Assembly: GCF_048403405.1 (NCBI RefSeq)
Contig: NZ_CP183129.1
Reading direction: 5' to 3' (one strand)
Length of the DNA stretch: 64,000 nt
Source: Escherichia coli
Lineage (GTDB): Bacteria > Pseudomonadota > Gammaproteobacteria > Enterobacterales > Enterobacteriaceae
The translations under genes were made by a program, and so were the position numbers. The notes below the pieces were generated by a model. It had not been told where the DNA came from. It made no database searches and saw nothing but the letters and a program-made list of their open reading frames with translations. Shown here piece after piece: positions 58,264 through 64,000 of the stretch (positions within the stretch are counted from its first letter, which is position 1; every line of letters begins with the position of its first letter).

Positions 58264-59211
58264 TCAGACCAGACGGTTGCCCGGAACAAACCATTCCCGA
58301 CGAGAGTTCAGGAGGTCTTGCGCGCTCATCGCTTTCTTACCCGCAGGTTGTAACGAGAGCAGGTTCAGGATGCCATCACCAGTCGCAACCTGAATGCCTT
58401 GTTTGTTGGCTTCAAGGATCGTTCCTGGTGCAGCGTTGGTTGTCGTATCAATGACCGATGCTTTCCAGACTTTAACCGGCTGTCCTTCAATTTCCAGCCA
58501 GCTCATTGGCCATGGATTGAAAGCGCGAATGCAGCGTTCAAGCTGTGCTGCCGAAAGTGACCAGTCAATACGCGCTTCTTCTTTACTCAACTTTTCGGCG
58601 TAAGTGACAAGAGTTTCGTCCTGAACTTCTGGTTTCGCCGTGCCGTCTGCCAATTGTTTCAACGTGGTGATAAGCCCTTGTGGGCCAAGCTCTGCCAGCT
58701 TGTCGTACAGCGTACCACTGGTATCTTCTGCAGTAATCGGGCAGGAGAGCTTATAGAGCATGTCACCGGTGTCTAAACCAACATCCATTTGCATAATGGT
58801 CACACCAGTTTCTGCATCACCCGCCCATAGTGAGCGTTGGATTGGTGCAGCACCGCGCCAGCGTGGCAGCAGTGAACCATGAACGTTGATACAGCCAAGA
58901 CGCGGCATCTCCAGCACTGCTTTAGGCAGAATTAAGCCATAGGCGACGACAACCATAACATCAGCCTGTAGATCGGCGACCAGTTGCTGGTTTTCTTGTG
59001 GACGCAGGGAAACCGGTTGAAAAACGGGCAGACCTTTTTCCTCAGCCAGAACTTTAACCGGGCTGGGCATCAGTTTTTTACCGCGTCCTGCTGGTCGGTC
59101 TGGCTGGGTGAACACGCCAACGACGTTATGACCAGAAGACAACAGCGCGTCGAGATGACGCGCTGCAAAGTCAGGTGTACCCGCAAAAATAATACGTAGT
59201 GATTCTGACAC
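58264..59211 (-). CDS. fmt: methionyl-tRNA formyltransferase
   Basis: 315 aa. Confidence 0.96.
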
Positions 59212-59225
59212 GTTAGTTCTTATCC

Positions 59226-59735
59226 TTAAGCCCGGGCTTTCAGACGATCCAGTTTTTCAACTTTCTGACGAATACGTTGTTGTTTCAGCGGTGACAGATA
59301 ATCCATAAACAGTTTGCCGACCAGGTGATCCATCTCATGCTGAATACAGATGGCTAACAGACCGTCTGCTTCCAGTTCAAATGGTTTACCGTCGCGGTCC
59401 AGGGCGCGAATTTTAACTTTCTCTGCGCGTGGCACTAAAGCACGTTGTTCAGGGATCGACAGGCAACCTTCTTCAATGCCTGTTTCGCCGCTTTTTTCTA
59501 AAAGCTCCGGATTGATTAACACCAGCCGTTCGTCACGGTTTTCCGAAACATCAATAACAATGATACGTTGATGGATATCAACCTGGGTTGCCGCCAGGCC
59601 AATACCTTCTTCTGCGTACATCGTCTCGAACATATCATCGACGATACGCTGAATTTCTGCATTCACTTCTTCTACCGGTTTAGCAACTTTGCGAAGCCGC
59701 TCGTCCGGAATATGTAACACTTGCAAAACTGACAT
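59226..59735 (-). CDS. def: peptide deformylase
   Basis: 169 aa with EGCLS and HEMDH motifs. Confidence 0.97.
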
Positions 59736-59864
59736 AAATCTCCAGAGATGTGTTCAGGAGTTAGAAAGATTATTTCTTCTATTCTAGACAAATCCCCCTC
59801 TGATTGACAGCATCACTGACCAATCGCAAAGATTGCTAAGGCTGCTTATGGCAGGGAGATAAGG

Positions 59865-60989
59865 ATGGTCGATACAGAAATTTGGCTGCGTTTAATGAGC
59901 ATCAGCAGCTTGTACGGCGATGATATGGTCCGTATAGCTCACTGGCTGGCAAAACAGTCGTATATTGATGCGGTTGTATTGCAGCAAACAGGGCTTACAT
60001 TGCGGCAGGCACAACGCTTTCTTTCATTTCCGCGAAAGAGTATCGAAAGCTCACTTTGTTGGTTGGAGCAACCCAACCATCATTTAATCCCTGCGGACAG
60101 CGAATTTTATCCTCCTCAACTTCTTGCGACGACAGATTACCCCGGCGCACTGTTTGTTGAAGGAGAACTGCACGCGCTGCATTCATTTCAGCTTGCCGTA
60201 GTGGGGAGTCGGGCGCATTCATGGTATGGCGAGCGATGGGGACGATTATTTTGCGAAACTCTGGCGACGCGTGGAGTGACAATTACGAGTGGACTGGCGC
60301 GTGGAATCGATGGTGTGGCGCATAAAGCGGCCTTACAGGTAAATGGCGTCAGCATTGCTGTATTAGGGAATGGACTTAATACCATTCATCCGCGTCGCCA
60401 TGCCCGACTGGCTACCAGTTTGCTTGAACATGGTGGGGCTCTTGTCTCGGAATTTCCCCTCGATGTTCCTCCCCTTGCTTACAATTTCCCACGAAGAAAT
60501 CGCATTATCAGTGGTCTAAGTAAAGGTGTACTGGTGGTGGAAGCGGCTTTGCGCAGTGGTTCGCTGGTGACAGCACGTTGTGCGCTTGAGCAGGGACGTG
60601 AAGTTTTTGCCTTGCCGGGTCCATTAGGGAATCCGGGAAGCGAAGGGCCTCACTGGTTAATAAAACAAGGTGCGATTCTTGTGACGGAACCGGAAGAAAT
60701 TCTGGAAAACTTGCAATTTGGATTGCACTGGTTGCCAGACGCCCCTGAAAATTCATTTTATTCACCAGATCAGGAAGACGTGGCATTGCCATTTCCTGAG
60801 CTCCTGGCTAACGTAGGAGATGAGGTAACACCTGTTGACGTCGTCGCTGAACGTGCCGGCCAACCTGTGCCAGAGGTAGTAACTCAACTACTCGAACTGG
60901 AGTTAGCAGGATGGATCGCAGCTGTACCCGGCGGCTATGTCCGATTGAGGAGGGCATGCCATGTTCGACGTACTAATGTATTTGTTTGA
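59865..60989 (+). CDS. dprA: DNA-protecting protein DprA (Smf)
   Basis: 374 aa, divergent from def. Confidence 0.9.
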
Positions 60990-61434
60990 AACCTATATTC
61001 ACACAGAAGCTGAGTTGCGTGTGGATCAAGACAAACTTGAACAGGATCTTACCGACGCAGGATTTGATCGAGAAGATATCTACAATGCCCTGCTTTGGCT
61101 GGAAAAGCTTGCGGATTATCAGGAAGGACTGGCAGAACCGATGCAACTGGCCTCTGATCCACTCTCCATGCGTATTTATACCCCTGAAGAGTGTGAAAGG
61201 CTGGATGCCAGCTGTCGTGGTTTTCTGCTTTTCCTTGAGCAAATTCAGGTGCTTAACCTTGAAACCCGTGAAATGGTGATAGAGCGAGTGCTCGCGCTGG
61301 ATACCGCAGAGTTCGACCTGGAAGACCTGAAATGGGTAATCCTGATGGTGTTGTTCAATATTCCGGGCTGCGAAAATGCGTACCAGCAAATGGAAGAATT
61401 ACTCTTTGAAGTGAATGAAGGTATGCTGCATTAA
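60961..61434 (+). CDS. smg: Smg protein
   Basis: 157 aa overlapping dprA 3' end. Confidence 0.88.
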
Positions 61435-61462
61435 TCATTTCTTTAATTCAGCATAAGTTGTT

Positions 61463-62005
61463 ATGGCAAAATCAGCACTGTTCACGGTGCGTAATAATGA
61501 GTCCTGCCCAAAGTGCGGGGCTGAACTGGTTATTCGATCCGGGAAACACGGTCCGTTTCTTGGATGCTCACAGTATCCGGCGTGTGACTACGTCCGTCCT
61601 CTGAAATCTTCAGCGGATGGACATATCGTCAAAGTTCTGGAGGGGCAGGTTTGCCCTGCATGTGGCGCAAATCTGGTATTACGCCAGGGACGCTTTGGTA
61701 TGTTTATTGGTTGCAGTAACTACCCTGAATGCGAACATACCGAACTTATCGATAAACCGGACGAAACAGCAATTACATGCCCCCAATGCCGGACGGGCCA
61801 TCTGGTCCAGCGCCGCTCCCGTTATGGCAAAACGTTTCACTCCTGTGATCGCTACCCGGAGTGTCAATTTGCCATTAACTTCAAACCCATAGCTGGAGAA
61901 TGCCCTGAGTGTCATTATCCGCTACTCATCGAAAAGAAAACCGCGCAGGGTGTAAAACACTTTTGTGCCAGTAAACAATGTGGAAAGCCGGTTTCGGCGG
62001 AATAA
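61463..62005 (+). CDS. yrdD: topoisomerase-I-type zinc-ribbon protein
   Basis: 180 aa with four tandem C4 zinc-ribbon repeats. Confidence 0.88.
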
Positions 62006-62009
62006 TAAC

Positions 62010-62528
62010 GTGAATAATAACCTGCAAGGAGACGCTATCGCAGCTGCGATAGATGTTCTCAATGAAGAACGTGTCATCGCCTATCCAACGGAAGCCGTTT
62101 TCGGTGTTGGGTGTGATCCTGATAGCGAAATAGCAGTGATGAGACTGTTGGAGTTAAAACAGCGTCCGGTTGATAAGGGGCTGATTTTAATCGCAGCAAA
62201 TTACGAGCAGCTTAAACCCTATATTGATGACACCATGCTGACTGATGCGCAGCGTGAAACCATTTTTTCCCGCTGGCCAGGTCCTGTCACCTTTGTCTTT
62301 CCCGCGCCTGCGACAACACCGCGCTGGTTGACGGGCCGCTTTGATTCGCTTGCTGTACGAGTCACCGACCATCCGTTGGTGGTTGCTTTGTGCCAGGCTT
62401 ATGGTAAACCGCTGGTTTCTACCAGTGCCAACTTGAGTGGATTGCCACCTTGTCGAACAGTAGACGAAGTTCGCGCACAATTTGGCGCGGCGTTCCCGGT
62501 TGTGCCTGGTGAAACGGGGGGCGTTTAA
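62010..62528 (+). CDS. tsaC: threonylcarbamoyl-AMP synthase TsaC, apparently C-terminally truncated by a -1 frameshift
   Basis: GTG start, YrdC-family; frame ends at 62528 after a G6 run, the +1-shifted frame continues 17 codons to a TAA at 62579-62581 just before the aroE ATG. Confidence 0.8.
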
Positions 62529-62585
62529 ATCCTTCAGAAATCCGCGATGCCCTGACGGGTGAACTGTTTCGACAGGGGTAACATA

Positions 62586-63404
62586 ATGGAAACCTATGCT
62601 GTTTTTGGTAATCCGATAGCCCACAGCAAATCGCCATTCATTCATCAGCAATTTGCTCAGCAACTGAATATTGAACATCCCTATGGGCGCGTGTTGGCAC
62701 CCATCAATGATTTCATCAACACACTGAACGCTTTCTTTAGTGCTGGTGGTAAAGGTGCGAATGTGACGGTACCTTTTAAAGAAGAGGCTTTTGCCAGAGC
62801 GGATGAGCTTACTGAACGGGCAGCGTTGGCTGGTGCTGTTAATACCCTCAAGCGGTTAGAAGATGGACGCCTGCTGGGTGACAATACCGATGGTATAGGT
62901 TTGTTAAGCGATCTGGAACGTCTGTCTTTTATCCGTCCTGGTTTACGTATTCTGCTCATTGGCGCTGGTGGAGCATCTCGCGGCGTACTACTGCCACTCC
63001 TTTCCCTGGACTGTGCGGTGACAATCACTAATCGGACGGTATCTCGCGCAGAAGAGTTGACTAAATTGTTTGCGCACACTGGCAGTATTCAGGCGTTGGG
63101 TATGGACGAACTGGAAGGTCATGAGTTTGATCTCATTATTAATGCAACATCCAGTGGCATCAGTGGTGATATTCCGGCGATCCCGTCATCGCTCATTCAT
63201 CCTGGCATTTATTGCTATGACATGTTCTATCAGAAAGGAAAAACTCCTTTTCTGGCATGGTGTGAGCAGCGAGGCTCAAAGCGTAATGCTGATGGTTTAG
63301 GAATGCTGGTGGCACAGGCGGCTCATGCCTTCCTTCTTTGGCATGGCGTTCTGCCTGATGTAGAACCGGTCATCAAACTATTGCAACAGGAGTTGTCAGC
63401 GTGA
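62586..63404 (+). CDS. aroE: shikimate dehydrogenase
   Basis: 272 aa from [17 protein letters not shown]. Confidence 0.95.
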
Positions 63405-63658
63405 ATCAGGCCATCCAGTTTCCGGATAGGGAAGAGTGGGACGAGAATAAAAAATGTGTATGTTTTCCCGCTCTCGTGAATGGTATGCAACTGACATGCG
63501 CGATCTCTGGCGAGAGTCTGGCGTATCGCTTTACTGGAGATACGCCAGAACAGTGGTTAGCGAGTTTTCGTCAGCATCGCTGGGACCTGGAAGAAGAAGC
63601 GGAAAACTTAATTCAGGAACAAAGTGAAGATGATCAAGGCTGGGTCTGGTTACTCTGA
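63401..63658 (+). CDS. yrdB: small protein YrdB
   Basis: 85 aa, GTG start overlapping aroE stop. Confidence 0.8.
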
Positions 63659-64000
63659 TCCAGATATTCGTCCTTCCATTTCACGTAATTATTCGCGGAA
63701 TAGCGTAACCCAGCCTTCTCTTCATCACTTAACGGGCGGATCTGTTTGACGGGGCTACCGAGATACAGATATCCGCTCTCCAGCCGTTTATTTTGTGGGA
63801 CCAAGCTACCCGCACCAATCATCACATCATCTTCTACTATTGCGCCATCAAGTAAAATTGAGCCCATCCCAACCAAAACTCGATTGCCAATGGTGCAGCC
63901 GTGGAGCATCACCTTGTGACCAACAGTGACATCTTCGCCAATGGTTAATGGGTTGCCATCTGGGTTGTACGAGGATTTATGAGTGACATGCAACATACTG
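63634..64000 (-). CDS. yrdA: hexapeptide-repeat (gamma-carbonic-anhydrase-like) protein, C-terminal part (5' end outside window)
   Basis: Minus-strand ORF running off the window end. Confidence 0.8.
   Translation of the reverse strand, partial: SMLHVTHKSSYNPDGNPLTIGEDVTVGHKVMLHGCTIGNRVLVGMGSILLDGAIVEDDVMIGAGSLVPQNKRLESGYLYLGSPVKQIRPLSDEEKAGLRYSANNYVKWKDEYLDQSNQTQP

Follow-up and report, generated by a model that had tools for sequence, protein, structure and literature searches.

In the window, as we call the 64,000-nucleotide stretch of Escherichia coli contig NZ_CP183129.1 (assembly GCF_048403405.1) that was analysed here, yrdD is a 180-codon gene within the string dprA-smg-yrdD-tsaC-aroE (Table 1). 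Its coding sequence is identical at the DNA level (100%) to loci that RefSeq annotates as yrdD in E. coli, for example that of strain 118UI, and the surrounding 901 bases match many RefSeq E. coli chromosomes at 100% identity. The region is matched in 5425 of 5426 complete E. coli genomes, where the genes are annotated smg, yrdD and tsaC. In strain 118UI, the full arrangement reads mscL-trkA-rsmB-fmt-def on the minus strand, dprA-smg-yrdD-tsaC-aroE-yrdB on the plus strand, followed by yrdA and an rRNA operon. The gene string named in an earlier, sequence-only reading of this DNA is borne out by the open reading frames, by the RefSeq annotation of the identical E. coli locus, and by the same gene order in 77 of 80 Enterobacterales species loci (the best 80, see below). 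The copy of tsaC in the window has its frame shifted by a 1-bp deletion within a G run.

Other kinds of element at yrdD were rejected. Rfam gave zero matches across positions 59000–64000, leaving no RNA element at the gene, and the minus-strand open reading frames contained within yrdD (78 and 51 residues) are unsupported as an opposite-strand gene. A consensus scan for a promoter or terminator belonging to yrdD itself produced no signal beyond the shuffle expectation, and no CRP-S site is evident by eye 5′ of dprA, in positions 59736–59864. A mobile-element origin is likewise unsupported: the plasmid and phage matches are mostly chromosomal DNA filed under those names, or full-length topA.

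Table 1. Genes of the dprA-smg-yrdD-tsaC string and zinc ribbons of YrdD, in window positions.
Feature	Position	Strand	Description
dprA	59865..60989	+	ORF and RefSeq annotation of the identical locus; first in the string, divergent from def-fmt-rsmB
smg (DUF494)	60961..61434	+	29-nt overlap with dprA; ends 28 nt upstream of yrdD
yrdD coding sequence	61463..62005	+	ATG-started ORF, 180 aa plus TAA stop
zinc ribbon 1	61499..61609	+	aa 13-49; C15-x2-C18...C35-x5-C41; PF01396 63.6 bits alone
zinc ribbon 2	61646..61756	+	aa 62-98; C64-x2-C67...C84-x5-C90; PF01396 71.5 bits alone
zinc ribbon 3	61772..61888	+	aa 104-142; C106-x2-C109...C128-x5-C134; PF01396 62.6 bits alone
zinc ribbon 4, divergent	61895..61987	+	aa 145-175; C147-x2-C150...C168-x4-C173; PF01396 16.4 bits alone
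tsaC	62010..62581	+	GTG start 4 nt past the yrdD stop

Cysteine is the commonest residue of YrdD (16 of 180), and all 16 cysteines lie within four motifs, whose first cysteines are spaced by 49, 42 and 41 residues. The mean of 44 agrees with the repeat spacing of about 45 residues given in the sequence-only reading, and the motif strings quoted there, including CPECHYPL, are all found in the protein. The same reading described four repeats of Cx2C...Cx5-6C; the four repeats stand, and the second knuckle is to be corrected to Cx5C in three ribbons and Cx4C in one. All 16 cysteines are invariant in 31 Enterobacterales orthologues, as well as in 24 stand-alone homologues and seven full-length TopA relatives.

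A Pfam search with the whole protein returned PF01396 (Zn_ribbon_Top1) as the sole family above cutoff, at 182.1 bits (E 1.3e-54) over four stretches, far beyond what chance would give. Each stretch has its four cysteines in two knuckles, as C4 ribbons do; the outcome that would have spoken against the assignment, cysteine pairs outside C4 ribbons, did not occur. The fourth ribbon falls under the PF01396 gathering cutoff of 32 bits when scored alone, yet is recovered as the fourth stretch in the whole-protein scan; it is without the GxF(I/L)GC strand-3 motif and carries the Cx4C second knuckle. Ribbons 1–3 are canonical and ribbon 4 is divergent. An AlphaFold model of YrdD (31 orthologues, pLDDT 77.7) consists of four β-strand modules, and its only significant fold matches in the PDB are E. 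coli topoisomerase I (4RUL, the top match) and complexes of RNA polymerase (RNAP) with topoisomerase I (9GDA/C/H). Among solved structures, the best sequence matches are again to E. coli topoisomerase I (4RUL, 9GDA and related entries, E ~4e-11), in the D5–D7 zinc ribbons.

The catalytic part of a topoisomerase is missing. Neither Toprim (PF01751) nor Topoisom_bac (PF01131) was matched in YrdD by Pfam. The TopA equivalog model TIGR01051, whose cutoff is 456.4 bits, gives YrdD 58.1 bits through model positions 592–630 only, and the other NCBIfam TopA equivalog models match YrdD with their C-terminal parts alone, far under cutoff. Because the catalytic families are unmatched and the TopA models stay under cutoff, YrdD is not a topoisomerase, and the RefSeq product names ‘DNA topoisomerase family protein’ and ‘type I DNA topoisomerase’ overstate a protein devoid of a catalytic domain. 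The description of YrdD as a tandem array of four zinc ribbons of the topoisomerase type, lacking a catalytic domain, holds on all three counts: the fourfold PF01396 match, the sub-cutoff TIGR01051 score, and the C-terminal domains of topoisomerase I as best structures.

Much of this has been published. Tan 2015 described YrdD as four 4-Cys ribbons (PMC4678816), and Zn-dependent ssDNA binding by YrdD is credited to Cheng 2014 (Biometals) in the form in which PMC4678816 cites it. YrdD binds both iron and zinc, with excess zinc displacing iron in vivo, as summarised by Li 2019 (PMC6495748), for which Cheng 2014 is among the sources. Expression of yrdD is repressed by chromosomal relaxation (Peter 2004, PMC545778), and the gene is listed among those induced by hypernegative supercoiling (2021 review, PMC8301835). 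The sequence-only reading had professed no knowledge of the function of such a ribbon array; this holds for the physiological role and falls for the in vitro activity, in view of the published Zn-dependent ssDNA binding, Fe/Zn competition and supercoiling-responsive expression. The architecture and in vitro activity of YrdD are already known, and the original observation is correct but ordinary. Interaction data for YrdD were not found in the papers mentioning yrdD that were searched. A literature search on ‘VC0050’, which we take to be the Vibrio cholerae locus tag of the yrdD homologue, gave nothing relevant to yrdD.

The known structure of E. coli topoisomerase I (EcTopoI) with ssDNA allows the DNA-contacting residues of YrdD to be predicted. 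In 4RUL, ssDNA is held chiefly via stacking on strand-3 aromatic residues, namely F616 (D5), Y728 (D7) and F780 (D8), assisted by Y622, R724 and F725, and D6, with Leu at the stacking position, does not bind DNA (PMC4678816). In HMMER and family alignments, F32 and Y38 of ribbon 1 correspond to F616 and Y622 of D5, and alignment to 4RUL residues 658–750 places R77, F78 and F81 of ribbon 2 at R724, F725 and Y728 of D7. Across 24 stand-alone homologues, F32 is F in 22 and Y38 is Y in 21, both residues being kept in 7/7 full-length relatives; R77 is R or K in 20, F78 is invariably Y or F, and F81 is F in every one. The same homologues invariably have Y or F at Y87 of ribbon 2, and in ribbon 3 they retain R or K at R120 (22/24), F at F125 (23/24) and Y at Y131 (22/24); these positions, too, align with the stacking residues of EcTopoI. 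The ssDNA-stacking positions of YrdD are likewise kept in full-length TopA enzymes. Ribbon 4 has K165 three residues ahead of C168, at a position that is variable among relatives, and may not bind DNA because the strand-3 aromatic motif is missing.

Taken with 4RUL, the conserved residues suggest that ribbons 1–3 would each stack a strand-3 aromatic residue and the Arg/aromatic pair of the β2–β3 turn on about 3 nt. If each of these ribbons accommodates ~3 nt, as D5, D7 and D8 do, the array would by homology grip a site of ~10–12 nt of ssDNA, and would do so only with Zn, not Fe, in the Cys4 sites. The metal chemistry could also be read as the main function, YrdD serving as an Fe/Zn buffer or sensor through its four Cys4 sites, with DNA binding as a by-product. 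The sixteen invariant cysteines fit such a role, as does the displacement of iron by excess zinc in vivo (PMC6495748); TopoI itself, however, shows the same Fe/Zn behaviour (PMC6495748), and the neighbouring genes serve DNA and RNA metabolism, with no metal-homeostasis genes among them. The conserved non-cysteine residues, moreover, are exactly the TopoI ssDNA-stacking positions, none of which a pure metal buffer needs, and we give a mainly metal-handling protein little credence.

The relatives of YrdD point to where the array came from. Among 1.84 billion representative proteins, 7394 relatives were found, and the nearest full-length ones are TopA enzymes of ~754–773 residues with exactly four ribbons. 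YrdD is collinear from end to end with the last ~165 residues of these enzymes at 41–46% identity. The alignment to TopA of a Lamellibrachia endosymbiont (762 aa, residues 587–750) has 46% identity over 164 residues with two gaps (E 3e-52); identity is 44.8% with Neisseria gonorrhoeae TopA and 41.7% with Legionella adelaidensis TopA, and metagenomic TopA enzymes give similar collinear alignments. When ribbons are scored one against another, the diagonal is highest, a pattern clearest in ribbons 3 and 4: ribbon 3 of YrdD has ribbon 3 of TopA as its best match, and ribbon 4 is the positional counterpart of the fourth TopA ribbon. The collinear block and the diagonal scores together indicate that the four-ribbon array was inherited whole. 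A recent duplication of the E. coli TopA tail was rejected, since E. coli TopA (865 aa, 4RUL) scores 46 bits against YrdD (E 4e-11) versus 166 bits for the dprA-linked TopA.

The genes for these TopA enzymes occupy the position that yrdD takes in E. coli. Full-length topA is found in the order dprA-smg-topA (loci L005, L011, L100, L101 and L102) in L. adelaidensis, where the locus reads rsmB-fmt-def <> lysM-dprA-smg-topA, in N. gonorrhoeae, in the Lamellibrachia tubeworm symbiont, and in two metagenomic loci. It directly follows dprA in further loci (dprA-topA, L007–9), a Coxiellaceae metagenome-assembled genome (MAG) having fmt-rsmB...dprA-topA, and it is itself followed by tsaC in a gammaproteobacterial MAG (dprA-topA-tsaC, L096). 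The general slot in Betaproteobacteria and basal Gammaproteobacteria is def-fmt<>[lysM]-dprA-[smg]-topA, with tsaC next in one locus; two of the seven full-length TopA whose context was looked up are not dprA-linked (L010 and L097/98; 860 and 795 aa). In N. meningitidis, dprA-smg-topA is co-transcribed, and dprA and topA are co-localised in 14 of 24 phyla (Hovland 2017, PMC5817196). The stand-alone gene sits in the topA slot in Aeromonas caviae, with the order fmt-def <> dprA-smg-yrdD-tsaC...aroE, and also in E. coli, Pseudoalteromonas and Vibrio, and the Pasteurellaceae genus Mergibacter has stand-alone yrdD in yrdD-tsaC-aroE. The orthologous group comprises the stand-alone four-ribbon proteins of Enterobacterales, Vibrionales, Aeromonadales, Alteromonadales and Pasteurellales, of ~175–200 residues, with four ribbons only, encoded after dprA-smg and/or before tsaC, and YrdD has this profile throughout.

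From this distribution we infer that yrdD very probably goes back to an ancestral topA whose catalytic ~580 residues were lost in place, in the ancestor shared by these five orders. A neighbour-joining tree puts the stand-alone YrdD proteins in one group adjoining the dprA-linked TopA; being midpoint-rooted, without support values, and built on ~165 repetitive residues, it leaves the direction of change unproven. The topA in this position would have shed its N-terminal ~580 residues once another topA, of the 865-residue E. coli type, did the enzymatic work, and the leftover tail would then have been retained under strong purifying selection. The yrdD literature examined does not state a link to the dprA-topA cluster. 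A topA remnant left in place would explain both the mislabelling of yrdD as a topoisomerase in databases and its topA-like expression, which follows supercoiling. Haemophilus influenzae is said to have ‘two topoisomerase I genes’ (PMC5817196), and our guess is that one of them is of the yrdD type, which would explain that statement.

Descent from a topoisomerase tail also bears on whether YrdD acts on RNAP, as a free copy of a TopoI C-terminal-like region that tunes, by competition or mimicry, the TopoI–RNAP coupling that prevents R-loops. The C-terminal domains of TopoI bind RNAP, and a free 14-kDa C-terminal fragment, when overproduced, displaces TopoI from transcription units and is toxic, causing hypernegative supercoiling and R-loops (PMC9352719); supercoiling-responsive expression of yrdD and the RNAP–TopoI complexes among its best fold matches would suit such a role. 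However, the RNAP-binding 14-kDa fragment is, on our reading, D8–D9, which is zinc-free (Tan 2015), whereas YrdD resembles the zinc ribbons of TopoI instead (best at residues 658–750, with only 4.9 bits to 765–794). YrdD moreover descends from a different TopA type, so that one would not expect it to have inherited the interface for E. coli RNAP, and the search for interaction data in the literature mentioning yrdD, noted above, came back empty. An action on RNAP is thus improbable.

If yrdD is the remainder of a larger gene, the question arises of whether it still has a function. Conservation and dN/dS were assessed on the best 80 loci from a scan of genome contigs with Smg alignments, all from Enterobacterales species; a protein search with Smg had only close enterobacterial relatives among the matches listed. 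In these loci, yrdD is intact in 78 of 80 species, and the smg–yrdD gap is 20–30 nt in 77. Median dN/dS against the window sequence is 0.025 for smg, 0.062 for yrdD, 0.079 for tsaC, 0.094 for aroE and 0.197 for dprA; dS is saturated (~1.5), and the values are comparative only. Even with saturated dS, this comparison excludes a decaying relic: yrdD is under strong purifying selection, and a decaying pseudogene was rejected on its dN/dS and its intactness.

The gene has decayed in two insect symbionts. Only fragments of yrdD are left in Pantoea sp. Nvir, where dprA is without a long open reading frame; in Ca. Erwinia dacicola, yrdD carries the substitution C90Y as well as two in-frame stops, and dprA has two stops. 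The genes smg and tsaC are intact in both. That YrdD is a functionless, decaying relic of a lost topA would agree with this pseudogenisation, with its descent from a truncated enzyme, and with the absence of a yrdD phenotype from the literature searched. Against it stand a dN/dS below that of the essential gene tsaC, intact genes in nearly all of the best 80 loci, 16 cysteines invariant across long-diverged orders, the near-universal presence in E. coli genomes, and ssDNA binding in vitro (Cheng 2014, as PMC4678816 cites it), and the conservation data effectively refute it.

The joint decay of yrdD and dprA is weak evidence that yrdD is tied to dprA and not to tsaC or smg, from a sample of two related symbiont lineages from a group in which loss of recombination genes is common anyway. 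It also bears on whether YrdD is a nucleic-acid-binding accessory of TsaC in t6A tRNA modification, presenting tRNA or other RNA to the threonylcarbamoyl-AMP synthase. The two genes are 4 nt apart in the window and overlap in Mergibacter; Pasteurellaceae keep yrdD-tsaC-aroE together with dprA and smg elsewhere; and one in-frame YrdD–TsaC fusion is predicted (P0339, four ribbons plus Sua5_yciO_yrdC). This fusion, however, comes from a single contig of one sequencing run and could be created by a single stop-codon change, and the adjacency is perhaps simply inherited, given that in L096 tsaC comes after full-length topA as well. There are also many bacteria with tsaC and no yrdD. With tsaC intact despite the decay of yrdD in both symbionts, TsaC does not require YrdD, and we regard an accessory of TsaC as quite unlikely.

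In our assessment, YrdD is likely a non-enzymatic, Zn-dependent ssDNA-binding protein made up of nothing but the four-ribbon module that ends a type IA topoisomerase at its C terminus; its relic origin, mechanism and role are the inferred parts of this account. At the least certain step, YrdD would bind ssDNA exposed in over-wound (hypernegatively supercoiled) DNA or in recombination or uptake intermediates. A role on ssDNA is supported because yrdD shares the expression pattern of topA, rising with negative supercoiling and falling on relaxation, and because of the genetic tie to dprA. A bolder version, which we think doubtful, holds that a piece of a lost topoisomerase was domesticated as YrdD, an ssDNA reader responsive to supercoiling that partners DprA in protecting ssDNA or handing it over during uptake, during recombination, or under R-loop and over-winding stress. 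Were this partnership real, the targeting module of an enzyme would have outlived the enzyme and gained a regulatory or protective role, and the co-decay in symbionts and the dprA-topA linkage across phyla would reflect a true partnership between DprA and the TopA tail. As a TopA tail on its own, YrdD offers a handle on the unexplained linkage of dprA and topA, by way of a possible functional interaction with DprA. Since both the domain composition and the binding of ssDNA in vitro have been published, describing them again opens little; the added value is modest and chiefly evolutionary, and lies in the origin from the topA slot, in how strongly the gene is selected, and in its joint decay with dprA.

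Three known systems frame the non-enzymatic ssDNA-binding protein proposed here. The published E. coli yrdD is the same gene (100% DNA identity), matching in its four 4-Cys ribbons and its Zn-dependent ssDNA binding (PMC4678816), with no difference. The TopA enzymes of 754–773 residues encoded in dprA-(smg)-topA clusters of Neisseria, Legionella, Coxiellaceae and sulfur-oxidising symbionts share with YrdD four collinear ribbons, the same slot and the flanking genes. Unlike these enzymes, YrdD is without the ~580-residue Toprim/Topoisom_bac part and therefore cannot cleave or relax DNA. The D5–D7 region of EcTopoI (4RUL) resembles YrdD in its PF01396 fold family, its Cys4 site and its aromatic and Arg stacking residues, whereas the sequences are distant (46 bits) and the D6 domain of EcTopoI, which carries an inserted helix, is not DNA-binding. 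EcTopoI combines three zinc ribbons with two zinc-free ribbon-like domains (D8–D9), whereas YrdD is built from four zinc ribbons and has no counterpart of D8–D9.

The genes dprA, smg, yrdD and tsaC are packed tightly in the window, as if translationally coupled, with a 29-nt overlap between dprA and smg and a spacing of 4 nt between yrdD and tsaC. The yrdD-tsaC junction, tight elsewhere, is interrupted in the Vibrionaceae MAG locus L002, whose cluster includes Vibrio hepatarius, by an inverted purK-purE pair inserted between the two genes. In P0339, a 369-aa ORF found on a single contig from a single sequencing run (locus L099), a four-ribbon YrdD is joined in frame to TsaC (Sua5_yciO_yrdC domain), in the neighborhood smg-[yrdD::tsaC]-hemF-aroE.

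In two insect symbionts, Pantoea sp. Nvir and Ca. Erwinia dacicola, dprA and yrdD are both pseudogenes, damaged by fragmentation, in-frame stops and the substitution C90Y, which affects a cysteine of zinc ribbon 2. The intervening smg and the downstream tsaC are intact in both species.

The essential gene tsaC carries a 1-bp deletion in the window. Sequence comparison revealed a run of six G residues versus seven in E. coli 118UI; the deletion shifts the frame, and the window ORF stops at 62528, ending '...PGETGGV*', with the final ~19 residues of TsaC missing. Two explanations are possible: a sequencing error in the homopolymer, or a TsaC that is genuinely truncated at its C-terminus.

Coordinates of the features discussed
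Feature	Sequence	Position	Detail
dprA/smg overlap	window	60961-60989	
tsaC	window	62010-62581	G run ~62516-62521
purK-purE insertion	L002	1975-3601	
YrdD-TsaC fusion P0339	L099	972-2081	
Symbiont locus, Pantoea sp. Nvir	L086	4900-7010	
Symbiont locus, Ca. Erwinia dacicola	L078	18-1334	

Apparent mobile copies of yrdD in the plasmid and phage collections were rejected as database labelling artefacts. The PLSDB 'plasmid' entries NZ_CP119142.1, NZ_CP134663.1 and NZ_AP026896.1 are megabase-sized chromosomes (chromosomes so labelled: N. gonorrhoeae, 2.17 Mb; E. coli, 4.9 Mb; Aeromonas, 4.9 Mb), and the INPHARED 'phage' entries OR851424.1 and AFYI01000003.1 are short bacterial fragments or whole-genome contigs with yrdD.

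Four YrdD-like proteins (P0364, P0386, P0367 and P0388) combine four ribbons with long extensions of low-complexity sequence, in which Q, A and E are abundant and no Pfam domain was found. The extensions are N-terminal and span 200-440 aa in P0364, P0386 and P0388, the last from a cluster that includes Succinimonas sp.; P0367 is extended at both ends, by ~160 aa at the N-terminus and ~250 aa at the C-terminus.
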